From Candidatus Binatia bacterium (lineage in GTDB: Bacteria > Desulfobacterota > Binatia > UBA9968 > JAJDTQ01): a stretch of 64,000 nucleotides of DNA. Location of the stretch: the NCBI GenBank assembly GCA_963666515.2, contig OY762897.2, positions 2,304,001 to 2,368,000 on the forward strand, written 5' to 3'. The position numbers were made by a program, and so were the translations under genes. The first letter of the stretch is position 1. The number at the start of each line of letters is the position of its first letter. Under the pieces are notes generated by a model. That model was not told the origin of the DNA, ran no database searches, and saw only the letters and a list, made by a program, of their open reading frames with translations. This document shows positions 1 to 63,582 of the stretch, in pieces.

Positions 1-1026
1 ACGGACGAGTACTACGCGCAGAAAGCCCGGGAAGCCGCAGCCCTGAAGCCCTGGCGCATCTGCTTCAAGGACGTGGGCGGCATGCTCACCCCGGAGCGCA
101 CCCGTACGCTGGTGCCCATCGTGCTGGAGAACATCGGCGATACCCCGGTGGAGTTCCACGCCCACTGCAACAACGGGCTGGCGCCGCTCAACTACCTGGA
201 AGCCATCAAGCTCGGCATGACCACCATCCACACCAGCATACCGCCGCTGGCCAACGGCTCGGCCCAGCCCTCGATCTTCAACATGCTCCGGAACGTGCGC
301 GCCATGGGCCATACGGTCAACGTGGACGAGGAAGCGCTGAAGCCGGTGCGGGAGCATTTCACCTTCGTGGCCAAACGGGACGGCCTGCCGGTGGGGGAGC
401 CGAGGGCCTTCGACCAGTCCGTCTACAGCCACCAGGTGCCCGGCGGCATGATCTCCAACTTCGTGCACCAGCTCCGCCTCGTGGGCATGGAGGACAAGCT
501 GCCGGCGGCGCTGGAGGAAGCCGCGCGGGTGCGCGAAGAGTGGGGCTATCCCATCATGGTGACGCCACTGTCCCAGTTCGTGGGCACCCAAGCGGCCATC
601 AACGTCATCATGGGAGAGCGCTACAAGCAGGTCACCGACCAGTCCATCCAGTACGCCCTGGGCATCTGGGGGCGGCAGGGCGCCGAGTACATGGACCCCG
701 AGGTGAAGGACCGCATCCTGGCGCGGCCGCGGGCCAAGGCTTGGGAGAACTGGGAACAGCCGGACCCGTCCCTCAAGGAGGTCCGGGCCCGGCTCGGGGC
801 CTCGCTGTCCGACGAGGAGCTGATCATGCGGGTGTACGCGGGGGACGAGGCGGTGGATGCTCTGCAGAACGCAGGCCGGCCGCGCGAGTACCTGAGCGCC
901 AGCCAGCCGCTGGTGCGGCTCATCAACGAGCTGACCCGCCAGCAGGAGTACACCCAGGTCTACATCCGCAAGCCCGGCTTCTCACTCACGCTGGGGAAGG
1001 AATCGCCGACGGCCGGCGCTTCCTGA
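1..1026 (+). CDS. Pyruvate carboxylase subunit B / oxaloacetate decarboxylase alpha-like carboxyltransferase (5' truncated by window; no biotinyl domain at C-terminus)
   Basis: Frame open from base 1; motifs CFKDVGGMLTP, FHAHCNNG, HQVPGGMISN, GYPIMVTPLSQFVGTQA. Confidence 0.85.
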   Translation, partial: TDEYYAQKAREAAALKPWRICFKDVGGMLTPERTRTLVPIVLENIGDTPVEFHAHCNNGLAPLNYLEAIKLGMTTIHTSIPPLANGSAQPSIFNMLRNVRAMGHTVNVDEEALKPVREHFTFVAKRDGLPVGEPRAFDQSVYSHQVPGGMISNFVHQLRLVGMEDKLPAALEEAARVREEWGYPIMVTPLSQFVGTQAAINVIMGERYKQVTDQSIQYALGIWGRQGAEYMDPEVKDRILARPRAKAWENWEQPDPSLKEVRARLGASLSDEELIMRVYAGDEAVDALQNAGRPREYLSASQPLVRLINELTRQQEYTQVYIRKPGFSLTLGKESPTAGAS

Positions 1027-53644: not shown

Positions 53645-55009
53645 ATGGCCTACACGGCACAAGGGCGCACCAAGAGCTTTCCGGTCTTCGACTGCGACAG
53701 CCACATCCATGAACCCCGGGAGGTCTGGGACGAGTACATTCCGGAGAAGCAGCGGGCGTTCGCCAAGCAGCACTTCTACCGGGACATGGACCGGCTCGTG
53801 ATGGTCGTGAACGGCCAAGTGAGCTACGGCAATCCCAAGACCTACGCCTATCCGGGACAGGGCTGGCACCCGGGCATGAACAAGAAGATCCTGGGCTCCA
53901 TCGCGCCCGACGACCCCCGGTGGGACGAGGAGATCGGCCGCAACGCCAGCCAGCGGGACCCGCAGGTCCGCCTCAAGGACATGGACGCGTCGGGCATCGA
54001 CCAGGTGATGGTGTTCCCGTCCACCTTCGTTCGCATGCCGCTGGTGAAGAACCCGGACGCGGCGCGCATCTGCGCCGCCGCCTACAACGACTGGGTCAAC
54101 GACTACTGCGCGGCCGACCGGAAGCGCCTCTATCCCTGCGCCGTGCTGCCGGTCCAGGACGTGGACTACGCCGTGCAGGAGCTTCGCCGCGTGGCCAAGC
54201 TGGGCTTCAAGTCCGCGGTGGTGCGGCCGGTGCTGGTCAACGACCGCTACCCCACCTTCCCCGAGTTCGACCCCTTGTGGAAGGAGTTCGAGGAGCTGGG
54301 GCTGGCCCTGGGCATGCACACCTTCCCGTCCGGCGGCGAGGCCGTGACCGAGGCCATGGCGGAGCGCATGTCCGCCGGCACCCGGGGCAAGAGCAGCGCT
54401 CAGCGCTCGCCCTTCACCGCGCACGAGGTCTACGTGTACTCGCCGGGGCAGTTCGTGGAAAACATCATGCGCAGCATGGGGGCGGTGCAGCCCGGGGCTG
54501 AGTCCCTGAGCTTCATCAGCGAGGCCCAGACCTGGACCATGATCGTGATGCTCACGGGCTGGCTGGAGAAGTTCCCCAAGCTCCGGATCGCCATCCTGGA
54601 GTCCAACTCTAGCTGGCTGCCCCTGATCCTGGAGAAGGCCGAGACCTACCTCGACCTCTACCGCTTCGTGCGCGAGCAGGCCAGCCCGCCGCAGAAGGTC
54701 GGCGACCCGCGGGAAACCTTCGAGCGGCAGTGCTTCATCGCCTTCGAAAGCGACGAGGACGTTACCCTCAGGCTGTGGGACATCTTCGAGAACATCGGCC
54801 TTTGGTCCTCCGACATGCCGCACCACGACGCCTCGGACACTTGGGAAGCCGTGGACAACATGAACAAGCACGGCGTGCCGCAGGAGGTGCAGGAGAAGAT
54901 GCTGGGCGGCAACGCCCGGCGCCTCTACGGCATCGAGCCGGAATTGTTCGTGACCGAGGCGCCGGCGGAGTACACGCCGGTGAACATCGTGCCGCGCTAC
55001 GCGGGGTAG
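53645..55009 (+). CDS. Amidohydrolase-2 family protein
   Basis: FDCDSHIHEP, RLKDMD..GID..FPS, GMHTF, LESNSSW, WSSDMPHHD. Confidence 0.9.
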   Translation: MAYTAQGRTKSFPVFDCDSHIHEPREVWDEYIPEKQRAFAKQHFYRDMDRLVMVVNGQVSYGNPKTYAYPGQGWHPGMNKKILGSIAPDDPRWDEEIGRNASQRDPQVRLKDMDASGIDQVMVFPSTFVRMPLVKNPDAARICAAAYNDWVNDYCAADRKRLYPCAVLPVQDVDYAVQELRRVAKLGFKSAVVRPVLVNDRYPTFPEFDPLWKEFEELGLALGMHTFPSGGEAVTEAMAERMSAGTRGKSSAQRSPFTAHEVYVYSPGQFVENIMRSMGAVQPGAESLSFISEAQTWTMIVMLTGWLEKFPKLRIAILESNSSWLPLILEKAETYLDLYRFVREQASPPQKVGDPRETFERQCFIAFESDEDVTLRLWDIFENIGLWSSDMPHHDASDTWEAVDNMNKHGVPQEVQEKMLGGNARRLYGIEPELFVTEAPAEYTPVNIVPRYAG

Positions 55010-55039: not shown

Positions 55040-56434
55040 ATGACCGAACTGGACAGCGTTACGTCGTCGAGCGAGACCGAATACCTCGAGTGGCACCTGC
55101 GCAACTACGAGGACATGCCGCGCGAGGTGATCCTCAAGATGGACCTCCTGCGGGTGGGCCACTGGTTCACCGACGCCGCCCTGGAACTGGCCTCCGAGGC
55201 CCTGGTCAAGTCCTACCGGCTGTTCTCCTACGACCTGATGTCCATGAAGGACATGAAGCGGAAGGAGCACCGGCGGACGCCCGAGTGGTTCGCCATCCGC
55301 GGCGGCCACCTGGGCCTGCGCCCCGTCATCGTCCAGACGACGCTGAACGCCGATTCGCCTTACGTCATCGACGTGGTGGACGGGGAGGTCCGGCTCCTGC
55401 TGGACGGGCGCGAGCTGTGTGACGTGAGCTTCCCCAAGCCGCTCAAGTACTACACGCGCTCCTTCGAGGACGGCACCAAGTACCACGAGATCATCGCCTT
55501 CGGCTATTTCGCCACGGTGTTCCGCAACTGCCAGTACTGGGGGCCGGACGAGGAGTGCCGCTTCTGCGACATCAACGTCAACGTACGCCAGATGAAGGAG
55601 TCCCGGGACTTCACCTTCAACACGCCGGTGAAGCCGGTGTCCTACGTGGCCGAGGTGGCCCGCTCCATCGAGCAGGACGCCATCGACGATGTTGGCTACG
55701 CTCCGCCCATCGACTTCCTGATCTCCGGCGGCACCATCCTGAAGACCCTGCACCGCAAGTCGGAGGACGACTTCTACCTGGAGTACGCCTCGGCCCTCAA
55801 GTGGGGCGGCCACCGCCGCTACATCAACATCCAGACCAACGCCAAGGACAAGGAGACCATGAAGCGCTACCGCGCCGAGGGCGTGGACTGCCACCACGCC
55901 AACATGGAGGTCTGGGACAAGCGGCTGTTCGAGTGGATCAACCCGGGCAAGAACCGCCGCATCGGCTGGGACAACTGGGTCAAGTGGATGATCGAGTCGG
56001 TGGAGGTGCTGGGCGAGGGCAACGCCCGCCCCAACTTCGTCTGCGGCGTGGAGCTGGCCCGCCCCCACGGCTTCGACAACATCCCCGACGCGGTCAACTC
56101 CACCGGCGGCGGCATCGACTTCATGATGCGCCACGGCGTCTTCCCGCGCTTCAACCAGTGGCGCCGGGAGCCCGGCTCCGACCTCGTCTCGCAGCACAAG
56201 CAGCCCGCCATCCCCCTGGAGTTCTACATCCAGATCATGCGCCGCTACTACGAGAGTTGGAAGAAGTACCGCCTCCCCTTTCCCCACCACGACTCCGTGC
56301 ACCCCGAGCGCCGCTGGGGCTCCGGCCACGCCACCTACGACGACATGCTCTTCCTGAACGACTGGCCCCACTACGAGGAGGAATGGGACCGAGGCTCGCG
56401 GGAGGGGCTGAAGGCCTGCGTCGTCAGCGAGTAG
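55040..56434 (+). CDS. Radical SAM protein with CX8CX2C cluster motif (biotin synthase-related fold, function unknown)
   Basis: CQYWGPDEECRFC, ISGG, NMEVWD..PGK, NFVCGVE. Confidence 0.8.
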   Translation: MTELDSVTSSSETEYLEWHLRNYEDMPREVILKMDLLRVGHWFTDAALELASEALVKSYRLFSYDLMSMKDMKRKEHRRTPEWFAIRGGHLGLRPVIVQTTLNADSPYVIDVVDGEVRLLLDGRELCDVSFPKPLKYYTRSFEDGTKYHEIIAFGYFATVFRNCQYWGPDEECRFCDINVNVRQMKESRDFTFNTPVKPVSYVAEVARSIEQDAIDDVGYAPPIDFLISGGTILKTLHRKSEDDFYLEYASALKWGGHRRYINIQTNAKDKETMKRYRAEGVDCHHANMEVWDKRLFEWINPGKNRRIGWDNWVKWMIESVEVLGEGNARPNFVCGVELARPHGFDNIPDAVNSTGGGIDFMMRHGVFPRFNQWRREPGSDLVSQHKQPAIPLEFYIQIMRRYYESWKKYRLPFPHHDSVHPERRWGSGHATYDDMLFLNDWPHYEEEWDRGSREGLKACVVSE

Positions 56435-56461
56435 GCCGGGGTCCGAACTCGATCCTTCTCG

Positions 56462-56587
56462 AACCTTCAATCAGTCGGGTATCAATCTTAAATTGGTCAG
56501 CCTCAAATCTTCAGTCGGTCGGTTGTTGACTTTCAATTGGTCGGCCGCTAACCTTCAATCAGTCGAATTCATTGTTCAAATGGTTGG
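56462..56587 (+). repeat. Array of six degenerate 17-bp direct repeats with 22-bp period
   Basis: Units at 56462, 56484, 56506, 56528, 56550, 56571; consensus RAYYTTCAATYRGTCGG. Confidence 0.85.
56526..56554 (+). promoter_or_regulatory. Putative sigma-70 promoter embedded in the repeat array
   Basis: TTGACT-N17-TAACCT. Confidence 0.55.
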
Positions 56588-56599
56588 AGGGATGCGGAC

Positions 56600-57820
56600 G
56601 TGTATCCTCGTTTTATCGAAAGCCGCGTCAACGAGGCGTTGACTTACACACGGGTCGTGCTCATATCCGGCCCTCGACAGTCCGGCAAGACGACATTGGC
56701 CAGACATATCGCAGCCGGCAAAATCCCGTTCCTGGACCTCGATGACAGGCCCACCCTGGAGACGGCCCTAGCCGATCCGGTGGGATTCATACGCGGCCTC
56801 GACCGGGCTGTGATCGACGAGGTTCAGCGCGCGCCCGACCTCCTCCTGGCCATCAAGTCGACTGTCGATGCCGACCCGAGTCCCGGCCGCTTCTTGCTCA
56901 CCGGGTCCGCGAATCTCATGACCGTGCCCCGGGTGGCCGATTCGCTTGCCGGCCGAATGAAGGTCGTGCGCCTCTTGCCCTTGGCACAGGCGGAGTTGAA
57001 AGGGAACCCCTCCGCCTTCCTTGATATGGCCTTCAAAGGCCAAGTGCCCAAGACCGGCGACGTCGTGGTCGGAGCCGACTTGATCGAAGAGGTTCTGGCT
57101 GGCGGATATCCGGAAGCTCTCACCCACTCCCGTTGGAACACCCGGCGCGACTGGTATCTCGACTACATCGAGGCCATCGTTCAACGAGATGTCCGCGACA
57201 TCGCCCAATTCGAGAAAGTTCCATTGATGCCGAGGCTCTTGCGCGTTCTCGCGGAGCACTCCGGACAACTCGTCAACTATTCCGGCTTCGGTGCACCGTT
57301 GGGGATGAACCATTTCACCACCCGAAGATACACTGGGCTATTCGAGAGTCTGTATCTCCTGTACAACCTGCAACCCTGGTTCACCAATACGCTAAAGCGG
57401 CTCACCAAGACACCGAAGCTGCACTTCCTCGATGCAGGACTGCTTGCGGCCTTAAGGGACATCACATCCGACCGTGTGGAGAAAGACAGGGCGCTTTTCG
57501 GACCGGTCCTGGAGACTTTTGTTCTTGCCGAGTTACTGAAACTGGCCAGTTGGTCAGACGACCGGTACGACTTCTCGCATTTCCGGGACAAGGAGCGGAA
57601 AGAGGTGGACATCGTCATGGAGGACCGTCGCGGCCATGTCGTCGGAATCGAGGTCAAGGCATCCGCCACCGTGACTGCCCGGGACTTCGCCGGCCTCCGC
57701 CGCCTGTCGGAAGCCTGTGGCGACCGGTTCGTTCTGGGACTGGTCCTCCATGACCACGAGCGCGTTGTGCCATTCGGTGAGCGCCTGTTCGCGGCTCCGG
57801 TCTCGGCGCTGTGGTCGTGA
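56600..57820 (+). CDS. AAA_14 ATPase with wHTH and DUF4143/PD-(D/E)XK-like C-terminal domain
   Basis: GPRQSGKTT, IDEVQR, LTGSA, SLAGR, GGYP, KTPKLHFLDAG, ETFV..E, EVD..GIEVK; GTG start after GGAGG. Confidence 0.9.
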   Translation: MYPRFIESRVNEALTYTRVVLISGPRQSGKTTLARHIAAGKIPFLDLDDRPTLETALADPVGFIRGLDRAVIDEVQRAPDLLLAIKSTVDADPSPGRFLLTGSANLMTVPRVADSLAGRMKVVRLLPLAQAELKGNPSAFLDMAFKGQVPKTGDVVVGADLIEEVLAGGYPEALTHSRWNTRRDWYLDYIEAIVQRDVRDIAQFEKVPLMPRLLRVLAEHSGQLVNYSGFGAPLGMNHFTTRRYTGLFESLYLLYNLQPWFTNTLKRLTKTPKLHFLDAGLLAALRDITSDRVEKDRALFGPVLETFVLAELLKLASWSDDRYDFSHFRDKERKEVDIVMEDRRGHVVGIEVKASATVTARDFAGLRRLSEACGDRFVLGLVLHDHERVVPFGERLFAAPVSALWS

Positions 57821-57927
57821 CGGAGCGCTGGGGAGGCGCTGATCTGGAGCGTGAATCACGCCTCCAAGTATTGCCTTCCGACCTGAGGCAGAATAATTTT
57901 TTGAGATATATACGGCGGGGGCAAACC

Positions 57928-58011
57928 ATGTTGATCAAAGTTCAGAAGTGGGGAAACAGCCAAGGTCTTCGACTCACGAAGGCGGACCCCTATGCGTCCC
58001 TCAGGGGTTAA
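57928..58011 (+). pseudogene. Truncated AbrB/MazE antitoxin
   Basis: MLIKVQKWGNSQGLRLTK then unrelated sequence and stop; no mazF follows. Confidence 0.7.
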
Positions 58012-58039
58012 GTGATTGACCCAATCAACCGGCCCCGCC

Positions 58040-59587
58040 ATGACCAAGCTCAGACTGCCCATCGGCATTCAGACTTTCCGCAAGCTTCGGGAAGAAAACT
58101 GCTACTACGTCGACAAGACGCCGTGGATACGGGCGCTGCTGGACGAAGGCTCGCTTTTCTTTCTCTCCCGCCCCCGGCGCTTCGGCAAGAGCCTGTTCCT
58201 GGACACGCTGAAGGAACTCTTCGAGGGCACGGAGACGCTCTTTCGCGGGCTCTACATCCATGAAGGTTGGGACTGGTCCGTGCGCCATCCGGTGCTGCGA
58301 CTGAGCTTCGGAAGCGGCAATTTCAAGGACCCCGCCCAGGCGCATGCAAGCCTCATGGCGCAACTCGACGCCGTCGAGCGCCGGACAGGGACCGCGTCGC
58401 CCTACCCCACTTCGCCGGAGCGTTTCGGCCATCTGCTCGAACAGTTGCACCATCAGGCGGGGCGGCCGGTCGTGGTGCTGGTGGACGAATACGACAAACC
58501 GATCCTTGACGCGTTGGAAGCGCCGGAGATCGCCCGGTCGAACCGCGACTTCCTGCGCGGCGTCTATGGGGTCATCAAAGACTGCGACGCACACATCCGG
58601 TTCGCGTTCCTCACCGGCGTGAGCAAGTTCTCCAAGGTAAGCCTGTTCTCGGGTCTCAACAACCTCAAGGACCTGACCCTGGACCCGCGCTACTCCGCGG
58701 TCTGCGGTTACACCGATGCGGACCTGGACAGCGTGTTCGCCCCGGAACTGCCGGGGCTGGATCGGGACGAAATCCGTCGCTGGTACAACGGCTATGCATG
58801 GCTGGGTGACGAGAAAGTTTACAATCCTTTCGACATCCTGTTGTTGTTCGATCGGCGCAAGTTCGACGCCTACTGGTTCGAGACCGGCACGCCGTCGTTT
58901 CTGGTGGAGACCCTGTTCAAGCGGCGCGTGAGCACCCTGACCCTTGAGGACATGCTCGGCACCAACGACCTGCTGTCGAGATTCGATGTCGACGACATCG
59001 CCACCGAGGCGCTGCTGTTCCAGACAGGCTACCTCACCGTCACGGATGAGGAGGATTTGGGCGGCGAGCCGGTCTATCGACTCGCTTATCCCAACCGGGA
59101 AGTCCGCGAGAGCCTGAATCGGAGTCTCCTGCGTCACCTGGTGCAGGATTCGTCACGCCAGACGACAAACGGCGTCCGACTCTACCGCCTGCTGGAAGTC
59201 AACGACTTCGATGGTCTCAAGGCCCTGTTCCAGACCTTCTATAGCAGCATTCCCTATCAGTGGTACACGAACAACGACATCGCCGACTATGAAGGATTCT
59301 ACGCCAGCGTATTCTACTCCTACTTTGCTGCCCTCGGTCTCGACATCATGGTCGAGGACAGCAGCAGCCACGGGCGGCTCGACATGGCCGTACGCTTCAA
59401 CGGCAACGTCTACCTGTTCGAGTTCAAGGTAGTCGAGATGACCCAGCCCGGTGCGGCAATGGCCCAGTTGAAGGCCCGGCGTTACGCCGACAAGTACCGC
59501 AGCCTCGGCCAGCCCATCTGGCTCATCGGCGTGGAATTCAGCAAGGACACGCGCAACGTGGTCGCGTTCGAGGTCGAACGGGGGTGA
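58040..59587 (+). CDS. AAA-ATPase-like protein with C-terminal PD-(D/E)XK nuclease (DUF1703-like)
   Basis: LPIGIQTF, YYVDKT, SRPRRFGKSL, LVDEYDKP, LTGVSKFSK, YWFETGTP, YPNREV, E..Y..GRLD..FEFK. Confidence 0.92.
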   Translation: MTKLRLPIGIQTFRKLREENCYYVDKTPWIRALLDEGSLFFLSRPRRFGKSLFLDTLKELFEGTETLFRGLYIHEGWDWSVRHPVLRLSFGSGNFKDPAQAHASLMAQLDAVERRTGTASPYPTSPERFGHLLEQLHHQAGRPVVVLVDEYDKPILDALEAPEIARSNRDFLRGVYGVIKDCDAHIRFAFLTGVSKFSKVSLFSGLNNLKDLTLDPRYSAVCGYTDADLDSVFAPELPGLDRDEIRRWYNGYAWLGDEKVYNPFDILLLFDRRKFDAYWFETGTPSFLVETLFKRRVSTLTLEDMLGTNDLLSRFDVDDIATEALLFQTGYLTVTDEEDLGGEPVYRLAYPNREVRESLNRSLLRHLVQDSSRQTTNGVRLYRLLEVNDFDGLKALFQTFYSSIPYQWYTNNDIADYEGFYASVFYSYFAALGLDIMVEDSSSHGRLDMAVRFNGNVYLFEFKVVEMTQPGAAMAQLKARRYADKYRSLGQPIWLIGVEFSKDTRNVVAFEVERG

Positions 59588-59762
59588 GGGACAACCCCGC
59601 CACATGGAATGGCCCTTGAGCCGACGGCAGTGTCGGCGCGCGGGTCTACACAAGAAGAAAGACCTTTCACACGGCTCCCTTTATCATAGAGGATCATAGA
59701 GGATGATTTGATATCTTCTGATCAGCAGATGGCCGGCCAAGGCTGACCGGAAGGAGGTACAG

Positions 59763-60166
59763 ATGCCGAACCTTCAAACAATAGCAGAGGCCACTATCGT
59801 CGATGTCCTGGGAAGCGACCCCGAACCGCTTCCGGAGTGGCTAGTAGCCCATGGCAACCCGCCACGGTTCAACCGCGAGAAGTTCTTCGATTCTCGGACT
59901 GTCTATTATCCGGGGTACGGAGACGATGGGCATCCCGTGGAACTCTTCAACCGCTCCCACGCCGCACACACGTTCATTTACGTCGACCATGGAGTCGGGC
60001 GGGACCCGCTCGCACAACGGCTTCGTGACCGGAAGCAGGGTTTTCTCGGATATGAGGTCGCCCATCAGCAGGAATTGTCGGAGGATACTTTGCGACCGGG
60101 CGGGTGGACGCAACACGTCACCGCTGACGAAGCCCGTGGGCTCATTACAGGCCGGGAAGGTTTAGC
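59763..60166 (+). pseudogene. 5' part of a hypothetical gene interrupted by IS1634
   Basis: AAGGAGG RBS; reading frame resumes after the IS at 62146. Confidence 0.85.
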
Positions 60167-62139
60167 CTGAAGTTCTGGGGCCGGATTCCGGCCTGACAGC
60201 CTCTAACTCATTGTATTGGATAGACATTTGGAGATTCAAGGGCAGATTTCAGGCGTAACATGTAGTCACTAAATAGACTTGACTCATTCGGTGATTGTGC
60301 TACAATTCCATGTATGCCAAGACGCAAGGCCGCCGTACACGTCGTTACTACCACGCGTCGAGTCTACACCACCCACCTGCTCAGGCGCTCCTACCGCGAA
60401 AACGGCAAGGTCAAAAACGAAACCGTCGGCAACCTCTCCCACCTGCCCGATTCGGTGGTGGAACTGGTGCGCCTCGCACTCGGCGGCAAGACCCTGGTGC
60501 CGGCCGAGGAGGCATTGCAAGTGTTGCGCTCTCGTCCCCATGGACACGTGGCTGCGGTGCTGGGCACGGTCAAGACGCTGGGGCTGGAGCGGCTGCTGGA
60601 CTCTCGGCACAGCGTCCAACGCGACCGTAGTGTGGCCTTGATCGTGTCCCGGGTGCTGTGTCCGGACTCGAAGCTGGCCACGGCGCGGGCGTTGGATGCC
60701 GAGAGTGCGACGTCCACCCTGGGCGAGGAACTCGGCCTTGAGGCGGTGCAGGCCGAAGAGTTGTATGAGGCCATGGACTGGCTGGGGGAGCGTCAGGGGC
60801 GCATCGAACGCAGTCTGGCCAAGCGCCATCTCCACCACGGCACGCTGGTGCTCTACGACGTGACTTCGAGCTATCTCGAAGGGCGGCGCTGCCCGCTGGG
60901 GCGCATCGGCTACTCGCGGGACGGCAAGAAAGGCAAGCTGCAGATCGTCTACGGGTTACTGTGCAACGCCGACGGCTGTCCGGTGGCGGTGGAGGTCTAC
61001 GAGGGCAACACCGCTGACCCGAGCACTTTGGCGGACCAGATCCACAAGGTCCGCGAGCGCTTCGGGCTCGAACGTGTGGTGTTCGTCGGCGATCGGGGAA
61101 TGTTGACCAGTGCGCGCATCGACGAGGAACTGCGCCCGGTGGAGGGTCTGGACTGGATCAGTGCACTACGCAACGATGCCGTCGCCAAGCTCGCCCAAGA
61201 CCAAGGCCCCTTGCAGTCGTCCCTGTTCGACCACACCGACCTGGCTGAAATCGCTCATCCAGACTTCCCCGGCGAACGCCTCATCGCCTGCCTCAACCCC
61301 CTGCTGCGCCAGGAGCGTCGGCGCAAACGCCAAGCCCTGCTGGACGCCACCGAGCAGGAACTGGACAAGATCGTCCGGGCCACCCAACGCCCCAAACGAC
61401 CGCTTCGCGGTGAGAGCGCCATCGCACTGCGGGTGGGCCGGGTGTTGGGCCGCTTCAAGATGGCCAAGCACTTCGACATGACCGTCACCGAGTCCTCGTT
61501 CCGCTATCAGCGCAAATCCGACGCCATCGCTCAAGAGGCCCGCCTCGACGGCCTCTACGTCATCCGCACCTCCGTCCCTGAGCCCCTCCTCGATGCCACT
61601 TCCACCGTCAGCGCCTATAAACGCCTCGCCGCAGTCGAGCGCGCCTTCCGATGCCTCAAGACCGTGGACCTCCACGTGCGCCCGATCCACCACCGCCTGT
61701 CCCAGCGCGTGCGCGCCCACGTCTTCCTGTGCATGCTCGCCTACTACGTCGAGTGGCACATGCGCCGGGCCTGGGCTCCACTCTTGTTCGCCGAAGACGA
61801 CCCCCAGGACGCCGCTCGCCGCCGCCCCTCCCCCGTCAGCCCCAGCGTGCCCTCCCACAGCTCCGAGCGCAAAGCCGCCACCCGCCGAACCCCACAGGGG
61901 CAACCCGTGCACCACTTCCGCGGTCTGCTCCGCCACTTGGCCACCCTCACCCGCAATACCCTTCAACTCCAAGGCTCAAAGCTGACCTTCCAACAACTCA
62001 CCCTCCCCACCGACCTCCAACGCCTCGCCTTGGAACTCCTCCACCTCAAACTCCCCGTGTAGTCAGAACCCGTACTGCCGTCTCAATCCTATTCCCCCTA
62101 AATTCAACCACTTACGCTGTCTTGGCCTCAGAACTTCAG
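60167..62139 (+). mobile_element. IS1634-family insertion sequence (1973 bp)
   Basis: Terminal IRs CTGAAGTTCTGGGGCC / CTGAAGTTCTGAGGCC (15/16); 6-bp target duplication TTTAGC at 60161-60166 and 62140-62145. Confidence 0.92.
60314..62062 (+). CDS. IS1634-family DDE transposase
   Basis: LLRRSYRENGKVK..NLS, LYDVTSSYLEG, GYSRDGK, YEGNTAD, VGDRGM, LDGLYVIRT, VERAFRCLK..RPIHH. Confidence 0.92.
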   Translation: MPRRKAAVHVVTTTRRVYTTHLLRRSYRENGKVKNETVGNLSHLPDSVVELVRLALGGKTLVPAEEALQVLRSRPHGHVAAVLGTVKTLGLERLLDSRHSVQRDRSVALIVSRVLCPDSKLATARALDAESATSTLGEELGLEAVQAEELYEAMDWLGERQGRIERSLAKRHLHHGTLVLYDVTSSYLEGRRCPLGRIGYSRDGKKGKLQIVYGLLCNADGCPVAVEVYEGNTADPSTLADQIHKVRERFGLERVVFVGDRGMLTSARIDEELRPVEGLDWISALRNDAVAKLAQDQGPLQSSLFDHTDLAEIAHPDFPGERLIACLNPLLRQERRRKRQALLDATEQELDKIVRATQRPKRPLRGESAIALRVGRVLGRFKMAKHFDMTVTESSFRYQRKSDAIAQEARLDGLYVIRTSVPEPLLDATSTVSAYKRLAAVERAFRCLKTVDLHVRPIHHRLSQRVRAHVFLCMLAYYVEWHMRRAWAPLLFAEDDPQDAARRRPSPVSPSVPSHSSERKAATRRTPQGQPVHHFRGLLRHLATLTRNTLQLQGSKLTFQQLTLPTDLQRLALELLHLKLPV

Positions 62140-62145
62140 TTTAGC

Positions 62146-62731
62146 GAAGCCGTTCGGATGGTTTGTTGTACTGGATCGACAACAGGGCCGCGGGGATGAC
62201 CATGGGCCAAAACGTTTCGCAATCCTGTTCATCGGCGGTGATGGTTACGCCAGCTACGATGCACTGTATTGCCAAGGAGACGGGACTCCGCCACCATTTC
62301 TCGCGGTCATCCAGGACCACGGCGACAATCCCTTCGGACGCGACAGCCCTCTGGAGTATATCGCCCGGAGACAAGGCATCCTGCCAGAATATTTGTTGGT
62401 TGGAGAACCCTCCACAGAGTGGCTGGGATATGCAGACATCGGAGCCCTCCCCAAGCCGGGTGGCATGCATGCTACGGCAAGACGACTTTTTATGCGTATA
62501 GACGACAATCTCGAGAAAGTTGTCTCTGCCTTTCTGCACGACTCTCGCAACCTGCAAACACGAACAACTGAGGACCTGAACTTCATTGTGAACCAGGTCA
62601 ACAATTTACGCGCAGCCATCGTGGACATTATCAAACCGATGAAAGATCGGAACCTGAAACGGAATGCCGAGTCTCTCATTCGGAAACTAACCCATCGCCA
62701 AGCGAAAGTGAACAAAATCTTGCATGACTAA
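62146..62731 (+). pseudogene. 3' part of the IS-interrupted hypothetical gene
   Basis: In frame with 59763..60166 once the IS and one TSD are removed (..GREGLAKPFGWFVVLDR..ILHD*). Confidence 0.85.
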
Positions 62732-62764
62732 GGCCGAAACAATCCTCGGCGTCCACGTTGCCCC

Positions 62765-62840
62765 TCCACTTCATGCTGTCCCGGTCGGCGTGGTGGGACG
62801 ACCACTACGGGCCGCTCGAACGCGACATGACGGCGTTCCC
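62765..62840 (+). pseudogene. Possible short remnant of a class I SAM methyltransferase C-terminus
   Basis: HFMLSRSAWWDDHYGPLE resembles the HF.L...WW..YY.PL motif; very short. Confidence 0.35.
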
Positions 62841-62877
62841 AGCGCGCCCGGTGGCCTCAATAGGTCGTGAAGAAAGG

Positions 62878-62948
62878 GCTCAGACGAACGGCGATACAAT
62901 CCGTTCGTCTGAGCGTAGCGCCGCGTCAGCGGCGCGAAATCGAAGGGC
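62878..62948. repeat. Partial doublet of the TTCGAC REP-like family
   Basis: GCTCAGACGAACGG spacer CCGTTCGTCTGAGCGTAGCGCCGCGTCAGCGGCGCGAAATCGAAGGGC. Confidence 0.75.
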
Positions 62949-62954
62949 CTCGTC

Positions 62955-63582
62955 TTACCCTTCTGTCCATTCTGGGGTATCAAACACTGCGGAAACATCG
63001 GCCGTGAAACCTTCGAGCAGCGACGACGTGGCGACGGCTCCACGCCGAAACACGCCGTGCTCGACGTATGCGTCGCCCTTGAGAGTAAGGACGGTGATGG
63101 TGTCGTCTCGCGGATCCACGATCCAGTATTCGGGGATGCCACCCTCGGCGTAGTCGGCGCGCTTCTCCACCAGATCCCGTTCCGGGCCGTCCGGACTCAC
63201 GACTTCCGCCACCAAATCCGCCCCCAGCCAGTAACGATCCTGGTAGCGCGGATCCGACCGGCTGCGCAGGAGCAGGATGTCCGGTTCGCGGAACTTGCCT
63301 TCGCGGATGCGTATGCGTAGCGCCGAGACCATTGCGACGCCGCTGAGCGGGCTGAGGTAGTCGCGGAACAATTCGTAGAGGAAGGTGAAAATCGCTTGAT
63401 GCGTCGAGGTGGGTGCAGGCAGCCTCGATGTAGCCGTCGGTGAACTCGATGAGCCTGCGGCTGCGGTCAGTGAGCCACAGGTAGCCCGCGTCGCTCCAGG
63501 CGCCTTGGCGAGGCAGGGTCTCGCGCAACAGCGCATTCAGCGCTTCCTGCGAGGCGTTCGCGCGTCCTGTCATGCGGGTCAT
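62955..63582 (-). pseudogene. Uma2 family endonuclease, frameshifted
   Basis: N-part ..PRQGAWS..LIEFTDGYIE in one frame; LPAPTSTHQ..REPD..LVAEVVSP..KRADYAEGGIPEYWIVDP in another; shift near 63424. Confidence 0.8.

Follow-up and report, generated by a model that had tools for sequence, protein, structure and literature searches.

A phased 22-bp repeat array upstream of a PDC-S01-family ATPase-nuclease gene is conserved within one clade and co-varies with two segments of the encoded protein

Introduction

The iterons of theta-replicating plasmids, such as those bound by TrfA of RK2, RepA of pPS10 and π of R6K, are direct repeats of ∼17 to 22 bp with a phasing of ∼22 bp. They are read by the winged-helix domains of Rep and adjoin the gene of Rep, which also autoregulates. 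The chromosomal locus described here is like an iteron set in that 17-bp direct repeats with 22-bp phasing lie beside the gene of a putative winged-helix binder. It is unlike one in that the protein is not a Rep but an AAA+/STAND-like ATPase carrying a nuclease domain, and has 24 paralogues in its genome.

Archaeal Orc1/Cdc6 with its origin recognition boxes and DnaA with its DnaA-box arrays share further features with this locus, namely an AAA+ ATPase, a winged helix and repeated sites by the protein's own gene. Orc1 makes a second DNA contact through its ATPase domain, and the Orc1/ORC2 structures 2v1u and 1w5s are among the fold matches of our protein model. In contrast to the Orc1 and DnaA systems, the repeats here are all head-to-tail and abut the start codon, the protein carries a nuclease domain, and many paralogues occur per genome. 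In MalT-type STAND factors, ATP- and signal-dependent oligomerization leads to cooperative binding to asymmetric direct repeats, and a MalT complex (8bob) was also matched by fold. However, MalT lacks a nuclease and uses its LuxR-type HTH to activate other operons, whereas the target proposed here would be the protein's own promoter region. Lastly, in the type II plasmid centromere parC, phased direct repeats flank the promoter of the operon encoding the binder, ParR, and serve as both platform and operator. The parC repeats have a period of 11 bp, their binder is of the ribbon-helix-helix type and a separate component serves as the motor; here the period is 22 bp and the putative wHTH binder is fused to the ATPase.

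The encoded protein belongs to the PDC-S01 family (Pfam AAA_14 + DUF4143; COG1373), described in the relevant sections of one report as an ATPase fused to a PD-(D/E)XK domain and as a candidate that is frequent in a defence context (PMC12988326). The same sections rank it as the fourth most common defence candidate in prokaryotes, with ∼39,000 detected copies, and give no validated activity or mechanism for it (PMC12988326). The original prediction for this DNA held that no cis-element had been described for the family, and the literature that we searched agreed, containing no description of a cis-element or DNA target of PDC-S01. The protein considered here is a full-length representative of the family and belongs to a clade with a conserved 22/23-bp array.

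Results

Within the window, by which we mean the whole 64-kb stretch of DNA that was analyzed, the array consists of six 17-bp units spaced 22, 22, 22, 22 and 21 bp apart (Table 1). Re-reading of the DNA reproduced the coordinates, sequences and spacing originally claimed for all six units. The array extends from about −140 to −15 relative to the start codon and leaves 12 bp before the GTG of the AAA_14 + DUF4143 gene. As had also been claimed, it runs into the ribosome-binding site, with unit 6 overlapping a Shine-Dalgarno-like GGAGGGA. Tandem Repeats Finder (TRF) independently reports a period of 22 with 4.7 copies (score 61) at 56462-56565. When the window was searched with the 17-mer consensus at up to three mismatches, six matches were found against 0.44 expected, and none of 100 shuffles reached six. 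These matches comprise units 1 to 5 and one minus-strand site at 56949-56965 within the gene. Unit 6 is recovered only by the 13-mer core with two mismatches, a pattern that alone is not significant (10 matches against 5.72 expected, a count attained by 7 of 100 shuffles). We take the array as confirmed. A CRISPR array was ruled out since 17-bp cores with 5-bp linkers are present, not unique spacers of similar length. The minus-strand near-match lies over conserved SLAGRM codons, and we take it to be coincidental.

Table 1 Features of the repeat array and of the gene downstream (window coordinates)
Feature	Position	Strand	Remark
Repeat unit 1 AACCTTCAATCAGTCGG	56462..56478	+	0 mismatches to consensus
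Repeat unit 2 AATCTTAAATTGGTCAG	56484..56500	+	22 bp after unit 1; 2 mismatches
Repeat unit 3 AATCTTCAGTCGGTCGG	56506..56522	+	1 mismatch
Repeat unit 4 GACTTTCAATTGGTCGG	56528..56544	+	First bases and preceding TT form -35-like TTGACT
Repeat unit 5 AACCTTCAATCAGTCGA	56550..56566	+	Missing from orthologues L012 and L013
Repeat unit 6 ATTGTTCAAATGGTTGG, degenerate	56571..56587	+	21 bp after unit 5; 13-mer core, 2 mismatches; PWM 21.6 bits
Candidate promoter TTGACT-N17-TAACCT	56525..56553	+	Within units 4 and 5; predicted
Shine-Dalgarno-like GGAGGGA	56585..56591	+	8 nt before GTG start; read directly
Gene, 406-aa AAA_14 + DUF4143 protein (PADLOC PDC-S01)	56600..57820	+	PDLC04790, E 1.3e-169; GTG start
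Walker A GPRQSGKTT, residues 24-32	56669..56695	+	G24, R26, G29, K30, T32 invariant
Walker B acidic pair D73 E74	56816..56821	+	Invariant
Winged helix-turn-helix, residues 207-276	57218..57427	+	AF2 helices 207-219, 227-234, 238-250; strands 254-257, 273-276
Residues 237-240 (NHFT), recognition helix start	57308..57319	+	Co-vary with box A bases 5-7
PD-(D/E)XK nuclease domain, residues 279-406	57434..57817	+	E311, D337, E351, K353; Can2 nuclease part matches
Hairpin loop RDKERK, residues 329-334, adjoining catalytic D337	57584..57601	+	Co-varies with box B bases 13-16

To see how far the array is shared, we compared upstream regions of homologues with 36-94% identity from seven phyla, plasmids included. 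Of 148 homologues, 123 had their strongest upstream self-similarity at a lag of 22/23 bp or twice that value, whereas 9 of 207 control regions did. This confirms the 22-bp period anticipated upstream of homologues. By best lag, 22 accounted for 92 loci, 23 for 23, 44 for 6 and 46 for 2, and the remaining 25 lacked the period. Upstream regions shorter than 150-220 bp led us to exclude 3 of the 80 loci from genomes and 9 of the 80 from metagenomes; those analyzed belong to the ∼1,000 relatives that the scans detected (522 and 563 confirmed stretches). In homologues the array always abuts the start codon, the median end of its last core being at −35. The original prediction had treated the array as a cis-element of AAA_14/DUF4143 genes, and this stands for the clade but not for the whole family, as TRF finds arrays at only 4 of the 24 paralogues in this genome and the lag threshold was passed by only 5 of 34 genes examined in the genus. 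On these comparisons the array is a trait of one clade.

Neighboring genes differ wholly from one host or plasmid to the next, but array and gene remain linked, and the plasmid homologues that have arrays lie among unrelated neighbors. The Binatia copies, in turn, are syntenic with flanking metabolic genes and show the same nucleotide divergence as these. Such observations bear on the possibility that the repeats are a mobility or maintenance site, for instance a Tn7/Mu-type transposon end, a recombination site, a plasmid centromere or an iteron set. Phased direct repeats of ∼22 bp do resemble such sites, homologues are found in 233 plasmid records and adjacent to IS and Tn elements, and an IS4-type transposase gene lies 2.5 kb downstream in the window. 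We nevertheless consider this reading very improbable given the synteny of the Binatia copies, the 24 paralogues on a single chromosome, and the protein itself, in which Pfam detects no Rep, Par or transposase domain. It also agrees poorly with the solitary nature of the array. No second or inverted cluster, phased or high-scoring, was found in the whole 4.67-Mb genome, where the array is unique. Nor did 39 homologous loci contain such a cluster in the 2.5 kb to either side; strong extra matches there only extend the same array. A Tn7/Mu-type transposon end was rejected on the lack of an inverted second set in the genome and in these 39 loci with their 2.5-kb flanks. Plasmid iterons or an origin were rejected as well, there being no Rep domain in the gene or the scanned neighbors and the site being chromosomal and syntenic in relatives.

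The encoded protein matches PDLC04790 over its full length (residues 1-406), and both Pfam domains score above their curated cut-offs (PF13173 AAA_14, E 1.1e-23; PF13635 DUF4143, E 2.5e-44). The Walker A/B motifs and C-terminal nuclease motif of the original prediction were upheld by 63 aligned homologues, in which residues of G24-T32, D73 E74, E311, D337, E351 and K353 are invariant; the P-loop ATPase and the PD-(D/E)XK catalytic residues are intact in the predicted enzyme. In the AF2 model (pLDDT 92.2), the wHTH-like segment noticed at residues 224-249 coincides with helices 227-234 and 238-250, residues 237-240 lie in the recognition helix, and residues 329-334 form a hairpin beside D337. 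Structure comparison of the model placed STAND/NLR, Orc1/Cdc6 and MalT-type ATPases among the closest folds; a PDB search with the protein sequence returned local P-loop matches only.

Each repeat unit has a two-box core, with box A at about positions 4-10 (TTYCAAT type) and box B at positions 13-16 (GNCG). Across 73 arrays, within-array identity was 0.58-0.73 at positions 4-9 and 0.55-0.72 at positions 13-16, against 0.28-0.43 in the linker. The four syntenic orthologues likewise keep the cores and differ in the 5-bp linkers, and TTGACTTTC of unit 4 is invariant in the four Binatia orthologues. Motif classes follow protein clades, and all units of one array share the clade-specific variant.

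We then asked which protein residues co-vary with the repeat. Of 149 arrays, 109 passed the motif filter (lag 22/23/44/46, z of at least 2.8, three or more units). The protein was 300 aa or longer in 104 of these, of which 96 fit a common frame with a score of at least 6. Collapse at 90% identity left 81 non-redundant sequences. Mutual information over these and 351 columns put residue 239 at the top for bases 5 and 6 and residue 238 at the top for base 7. The pairings are close to exclusive: K239 occurs with C6 in 35/35 cases, H238 with C7 in 28/28, D238 with G7 in 11/12 and D237 with C5 in 25/28.

Single-trait phylogenetic sign tests were nearly always concordant in direction and never reached 0.05 (median p 0.125 to 1), on the FastTree tree as on the IQ-TREE quick tree, because there were too few supported pairs. 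Since these tests were underpowered, we replaced them with a sister-pair test over all tripeptide windows, in which 48 independent pairs were drawn from a tree built without the wHTH columns and 403 windows were ranked. Box A had changed in 17 of the 48 pairs; a change within residues 238-240 accompanied it in 15 of the 17 and occurred in 3 of the 31 others (p 8.5e-8). Windows 238-240 and 237-239 ranked first and second for box A, so the co-variation with the wHTH recognition helix that the original prediction called for is found, at the start of the helix. Changes in box B track residues 331-333 (18/21 versus 7/27 pairs, p 4e-5), and windows 331-333, 330-332, 329-331 and 332-334 take ranks 1, 3, 5 and 8 of 403. 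Changes in the linker and the spacer follow unrelated windows. Among single columns, the pair test placed residue 51 of the ATPase domain first for box A, which the binding model leaves unexplained; by analogy with Orc1, this residue is possibly a second DNA contact in that domain.

This in silico co-variation suggests that the array sites are recognized by the product of their own gene, and the protein encoded downstream most likely binds its own array. Alternatively, the array could be bound by another factor, such as a host regulator or a neighbor's product, or be mere promoter architecture, the match to the protein reflecting shared descent: gene and array are tightly linked and therefore carry the same phylogeny, and the sign tests were non-significant. 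We find this quite improbable, as the neighbors change completely while array and gene stay paired, and all units of an array share the clade's variant while linkers drift. Moreover, the sister-pair test has a divergence control built in, and under it the recognition-helix windows rank first and second while linker changes point elsewhere.

The promoter predicted within the array, TTGACT-N17-TAACCT, is present as a sequence, but a strict sigma-70 scan of 56300-58100 calls no promoter because its second hexamer matches at 3/6 positions only. TTGACT-N17/18-TA(A/T)CCT is retained in the window and in orthologues L011, L012 and L013, and a Salipiger plasmid homologue has TTGACT-N18-TACTTT at the corresponding place. 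In the window's clade, TTGACT-N17/18-TAnnnT is kept at the junction of the penultimate and last units. Among the 79 homologues for which any candidate was predicted, the -35 element varies in position (phase 20 in only 19), so no general promoter map can be drawn.

We also considered whether the repeats act as RNA, forming a structured leader, or have no function and arose through replication slippage. Predicted folding of 56455-56605 gives a structure somewhat more stable than those of shuffled sequences (z −2.07; 7 of 200 shuffles equal it), and a hairpin covers the ribosome-binding site and start codon. Rfam, however, returns nothing for 56300-56750 at E values up to 1, and the embedded promoter, if real, would leave only ∼1.5 units transcribed. 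Slippage, for its part, would preserve neither a two-box constraint nor a fixed period in seven phyla, and we regard both ideas as scarcely credible.

Discussion

Conservation of the period, the two-box constraint and the co-variation with two protein segments are established by sequence comparison; from them we infer physical binding, its cooperativity, the position of the promoter and repression as the outcome. Because the period is conserved and the repeat co-varies with the protein, gene plus array behaves as one module in silico, in keeping with the self-contained module first proposed. We think it probable that the array is a self-bound operator that overlaps the promoter and subjects the ATPase-nuclease to negative autoregulation. 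The array would be the cognate DNA site of the protein encoded directly downstream, with one protomer per 22-bp unit. Residues 237-240, at the start of the wHTH recognition helix, would read box A, and the basic hairpin loop 329-334 of the nuclease domain would probably read box B, which lies one helical turn from box A. With head-to-tail units repeating every two turns of the helix, four to six protomers would come to lie on about one face of the DNA, an arrangement that may allow cooperative, possibly ATP-controlled, occupancy. Since the array holds the only promoter-like hexamers, occupancy should stop transcription and shut off a potentially toxic ATPase-nuclease.

The same co-variation would equally support an array that serves mainly as an assembly or docking platform, on which an ORC/DnaA/MalT-like oligomer parks the nuclease inactive on 'self' DNA until a signal, for example phage infection, releases or activates it, with repression a side effect. 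Box B co-varies with the loop beside the catalytic D337, which suggests that the array is contacted by the catalytic domain itself. The residues for catalysis are invariant, the closest folds include those of ATPases that act as oligomers, and the family, which PADLOC matches here, is a frequent defence candidate in the pertinent sections of the survey (PMC12988326). We hold docking as the main function to be possible but doubtful. The evidence fits plain autoregulation just as well, and the constant abutment of array and start codon (median −35) is needed by an operator but not by a mere dock. Furthermore, defence by PDC-S01 has candidate status, and one representative gave no protection of E. 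coli B against T4, T5 or T7 in the part of a preprint that concerns it (bioRxiv 10.1101/2024.09.26.614923).

Taken further, and only tentatively, the ATPase-nuclease may assemble head-to-tail on a private, co-evolving array by its own gene, with the wHTH and the nuclease domain both reading DNA. The ORC-like complex would then be a self-docked, nuclease-silenced resting state, to be taken apart or activated by a trigger. Phased direct repeats occupied by an AAA+ protein, a design like that of ORC, DnaA and iterons, would here be placed before a nuclease gene, and heterologous tests with and without the native upstream region may behave very differently. If the model is true, the rules K239-C6, H or R238-C7, D238-G7 and D237-C5 would make specificity predictable and reprogrammable, and a candidate defence protein that is among the most abundant in prokaryotes would be a sequence-specific nucleoprotein machine. 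The putative conserved cognate DNA site and the residue-to-base rules would give the PDC-S01 family its first concrete molecular handle, one that is cheaply testable.

A phased array abuts the ATPase-nuclease gene

Direct reading of the sequence recovered six head-to-tail units within 56462-56587, in exact agreement with the coordinates of the original prediction (see table). Tandem Repeats Finder (TRF) scored the array at 61, with a period of 22 and 4.7 copies. When the 64 kb were searched with a 17-mer consensus allowing up to three mismatches, we obtained six matches against 0.44 expected, and 0 of 100 shuffles reached six. These were units 1 to 5 and one minus-strand site within the gene; unit 6 was recovered only by a looser 13-mer pattern, which alone was not significant. 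The inverted near-copy, for which the orthologous locus L012 has a comparable weak minus-strand match, is probably coincidental. The window corresponds to C1:2304001-2368000 (C1, the genome's coordinate record) of a 4.67-Mb genome with 65.8% G+C, in which the unit core otherwise gave isolated single matches only. The original prediction would have been undercut by genome-wide occurrence of the same repeat, but a weight matrix built from all six copies detected no second high-scoring or phased cluster in this genome. The array starts 28 bp past the stop of a co-oriented upstream ORF, occupies the last roughly 140 bp ahead of the start codon and ends within a GGAGGGA ribosome-binding site, 12 bp ahead of the GTG at 56600. 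The number of hairpin sites like the one at this start is no more than chance would give.

The 406-aa product matched AAA_14 (E 1.1e-23) and DUF4143 (E 2.5e-44) in a domain search and, over its whole length, the PADLOC candidate family PDC-S01 (E 1.3e-169). There was no solved structure related to it by sequence, and an AlphaFold2 model from 63 homologues was confident (pLDDT 92.2, pTM 0.92). In the homologue alignment the Walker A and B residues, E311, D337, E351 and K353 are invariant. The top fold matches of the model were the archaeal wH-ATPases PABY2304 and SSO1545, followed by STAND/NLR proteins, Orc1/Cdc6, RFC, RuvB and MalT, with the nuclease part matching Can2. The surroundings of the gene differ on its two sides, with metabolic genes 5' (Amidohydro_2 and ChsH2-type) and a variable region 3'. 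The 27-codon ORF downstream of the gene, which gave no Pfam match, resembles an N-terminal stub of a MazE/AbrB-type antitoxin.

Features of the locus, the protein model and related arrays (window coordinates unless marked C1 or residues)
Feature	Position	Strand	Remarks
Unit 1	start 56462		AACCTTCAATCAGTCGG
Unit 2	start 56484		AATCTTAAATTGGTCAG
Unit 3	start 56506		AATCTTCAGTCGGTCGG
Unit 4	start 56528		GACTTTCAATTGGTCGG
Unit 5	start 56550		AACCTTCAATCAGTCGA
Unit 6	start 56571		ATTGTTCAAATGGTTGG; degenerate
Hairpin	56589-56608		8-pair stem over ribosome-binding site and GTG start
ATPase-nuclease gene	56600-57820	+	406 aa
Inverted near-copy of unit	56949-56965	-	GACCTTCATTCGGCCGG; 3 mismatches; over codons of the conserved SLAGRM motif
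464-aa ORF	55040-56434		no Pfam match; just 5' of array; mostly absent in L011, the closest orthologous locus, whose alignment covers 54100-55009 and resumes at 56240
27-codon ORF	57928-58011		MLIKVQKWGNSQGLRLTK...; first 56 bp 86% identical in orthologous locus L013
Variable region	58016-63536		3' of gene
AAA-ATPase_like+PDDEXK_9 gene	58016-59587		directly downstream
IS4-type DDE transposase	60314-62062		variable region
Uma2-family gene	62955-63536	-	variable region
ATPase core	residues 1-135		model
Helical lid	residues 140-201		model
Winged helix-turn-helix (wHTH)	helices 207-219, 227-234, 238-250		model; wing strands 254-257, 273-276
PD-(D/E)XK domain	residues 279-406		model
20-bp repeat	C1:7361-7398		two-copy (1.9 copies); abuts ATG of DUF4143 paralogue
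33-bp array	C1:4191470-4191558		2.7 copies; before DUF4143 paralogue at C1:4192283; each unit a palindrome with 10-bp arms, ATTTCTCCTT..AAGGAGAAAT
23-bp array	C1:4196938-4197021		TTACAAATACCTGGTCAAATGTG; about 3-4 units (TRF: 4196961-4197021, 2.7 copies); before DUF4143 paralogue; G+C-rich hairpin follows
Low-G+C arrays not beside DUF4143 genes	C1:502329-502374, 2418821-2418879, 2821613-2821650		three of eight

The period is conserved upstream of homologues

Scanning one genome per species yielded at least 80 homologous loci at 94-47% identity. Among the matches listed, the closest were Binatia MAGs, and others included Verrucomicrobiota, Alpha-, Beta- and Gammaproteobacteria, Acidobacteriota, Rhodothermota, Myxococcota and Chloroflexota. 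Of 77 usable loci, 26 had an upstream array by TRF, with a period of 22 or, in a few cases, 23 or 44. As a more sensitive measure, we compared lags of 8 to 49 in the 220 bp preceding the start and kept the one that gave the highest self-match count in any 66-bp window; in the same 77 loci the best lag was 22 in 60, 23 in 3, 44 in 4 and 46 in 1. An alignment-based metagenome scan added at least 80 more distant loci (71-36% identity), and in the 71 usable ones the best lag was 22 in 32, 23 in 20, 44 in 2 and 46 in 1. The predicted 22-bp period upstream of homologues was thereby confirmed, as 22, 23 or double these values, in 123 of 148 homologues versus 9 of 207 control regions of these loci (4/71 and 3/63 downstream of the stop, 2/73 at -520 to -300). 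Arrays were present in seven phyla: Binatota (2/2), Myxococcota (2/2), Pseudomonadota (47/54), Rhodothermota (2/2), Verrucomicrobiota (5/5), Acidobacteriota (8/8) and Chloroflexota (2/2); the sole locus from Actinomycetota had none. Measured from the projected start codon, median positions are -103 for the beginning of the first core and -35 for the end of the last one. The array is thus a genuine and conserved feature.

Homologues also occur on 233 plasmid records; on the Salipiger plasmid pTPRO7 the gene lies amid Tn and IS genes, immediately preceded by four units spaced 22 bp apart. In the syntenic Binatia orthologues L011-L013, nucleotide similarity extends from the upstream genes through the stop codon of the gene and not beyond; the linkers vary between preserved cores, and one unit is missing from L012 and L013. 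A transposon end, recombination site or centromere fares worse as an explanation, given this synteny and the absence of a second or inverted cluster from the genome itself and from 39 loci with 2.5-kb flanks. So does an RNA element, since there was no Rfam match and the fold was just marginally better than that of shuffles (z -2.07).

Two boxes co-vary with two protein segments

Once rotated into a shared frame, units from all clades align to gAaTTtcAATTgGaCGg followed by a 5-bp (or 6-bp) linker. Mean pairwise identity within 73 arrays was 0.58-0.73 at positions 4-9 (box A) and 0.55-0.72 at positions 13-16 (box B), compared with about 0.5 at positions 10-12 and 0.28-0.43 in the linker. Conserved boxes against drifting linkers, together with the unit missing from L012 and L013, indicate that selection acts on the units as a pair of short boxes held in constant phase, whereas copy number varies.

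Motif variants track the protein tree, with classes including TTTCAAT..GTCGG, TTAAAAT..GACGG, TTTAAAT..GTCAG, TCCGAAT..GACG, TCCCAAT..GCCGG and TCCGCAT..GCCG. By normalised mutual information over 81 sequences less than 90% identical (351 variable columns), the top column was residue 239 for base 5 (second, 237), 239 for base 6 and 238 for base 7. Contingency counts were near deterministic: K239 accompanied C6 in 35/35 sequences (3/46 among non-K), H238 and R238 accompanied C7 in 28/28 and 17/19, D238 accompanied G7 in 11/12, and D237 accompanied C5 in 25/28.

Because shared descent could yield such tables, the association was tested on trees from which columns 205-278 had been left out. For single binary traits, sign tests could draw on no more than 1-8 supported pairs and never gave p < 0.05 (median 0.125 to 1); the protein trait went in the same direction in almost all informative pairs. 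We then ranked all 403 sliding tripeptide windows over 48 non-overlapping sister pairs from an IQ-TREE tree. Box A bases 5-7 differed in 17 pairs, and residues 238-240 differed in 15 of these versus 3 of the 31 others (one-sided Fisher p 8.5e-8), which placed 238-240 first and 237-239 second. Since residues 237-240 open the recognition helix in the AlphaFold2 model, the proposed co-variation of the repeat consensus with the wHTH recognition helix was borne out. Box B (bases 13-16) had changed in 21 pairs and was tracked best by window 331-333 (18/21 versus 7/27, p 4e-5), and 330-332, 329-331 and 332-334 ranked 3, 5 and 8; residues 329-334 form a modelled hairpin loop joining two nuclease-domain strands, three residues before the catalytic D337. 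Changes in the linker or at positions 10-12 gave unrelated, generally variable segments as best windows. Among single columns, residue 51 (P51, ATPase domain, past the invariant D48; 56750-56752) tracked box A best, having changed in 14/17 versus 2/31 pairs; it may touch DNA as a second contact or may only correlate with divergence.

A proposed mode of binding

From these sequence patterns, the array very probably serves as the cognate site of the neighbouring ATPase-nuclease; each unit would bind one protomer. The wHTH would contact box A while the nuclease-domain loop contacts box B, roughly one turn from it, and head-to-tail units spaced by 22-23 bp, close to two helical turns, would align protomers on roughly one DNA face, as binding proteins are lined up at plasmid iterons. 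The box B signal also makes attractive a rival to autoregulation in which the protein at rest is the very complex that fills the array, its nuclease parked on self DNA; we consider this less probable than autoregulation. For the cognate site, a regulatory consequence can be proposed. The TTGACT-N17-TAACCT of the original prediction is present, and in the window's clade TTGACT-N17/18-TA(A/T)CCT is made up of the opening bases of the last two strong units, but a strict scan around the array and gene called no promoter; predictions in other clades were heterogeneous. With this putative promoter inside an array that reaches almost to the start codon, occupancy should repress the gene.

Phased arrays within the DUF4143 family

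DUF4143 genes number 24 in this genome, 1 to 35 in each same-genus relative and 0-9 in other genera of the order, with at least one in 28 of 31 genomes searched; the paralogue expansion in the genus is massive. By TRF, 4 of the 24 are preceded by an array with a period of at least 20, the window array being one. These four belong to just 12 low-G+C arrays of period 15-45 genome-wide (291 arrays in total), an enrichment with binomial p 8.7e-9 on genome length and 3.8e-5 when the calculation is restricted to an intergenic fraction assumed to be 12%. In a lag test with the 99th percentile of 144 controls as threshold, 5 of 34 DUF4143 genes of the genus passed, one resembling coding periodicity and one a G+C-rich repeat. 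Phased arrays are therefore enriched in the DUF4143 family, yet they characterise certain clades and do not extend to the family as a whole. Other DUF4143 genes in relatives G002 and G003 (loci L183 and L199) have 23-bp arrays whose core, CAATCAGCCG, is related; the four or more perfect copies in L183 suggest recent amplification.

Relation to what is known

DUF4143 has been classified as PD-(D/E)XK family 100, of unknown function (PMC3424549), and described as a nuclease module (bioRxiv 10.64898/2026.10.19.760177). PDC-S01 is reported to rank fourth in abundance among defence candidates, with 9,986 copies in archaea and 29,494 in bacteria, and to await validation (PMC12988326). In one screen, a PDC-S01 representative was not among the four candidates protecting E. 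coli B from T4, T5 or T7 (bioRxiv 10.1101/2024.09.26.614923). As the original prediction held, we found no described cis-element for the COG1373/AAA_14/DUF4143/PDC-S01 family in the literature searched. The array is best described as a putative self-bound, iteron-like operator array. It belongs to an abundant family without a known mechanism, and brings to it testable residue-to-base rules.
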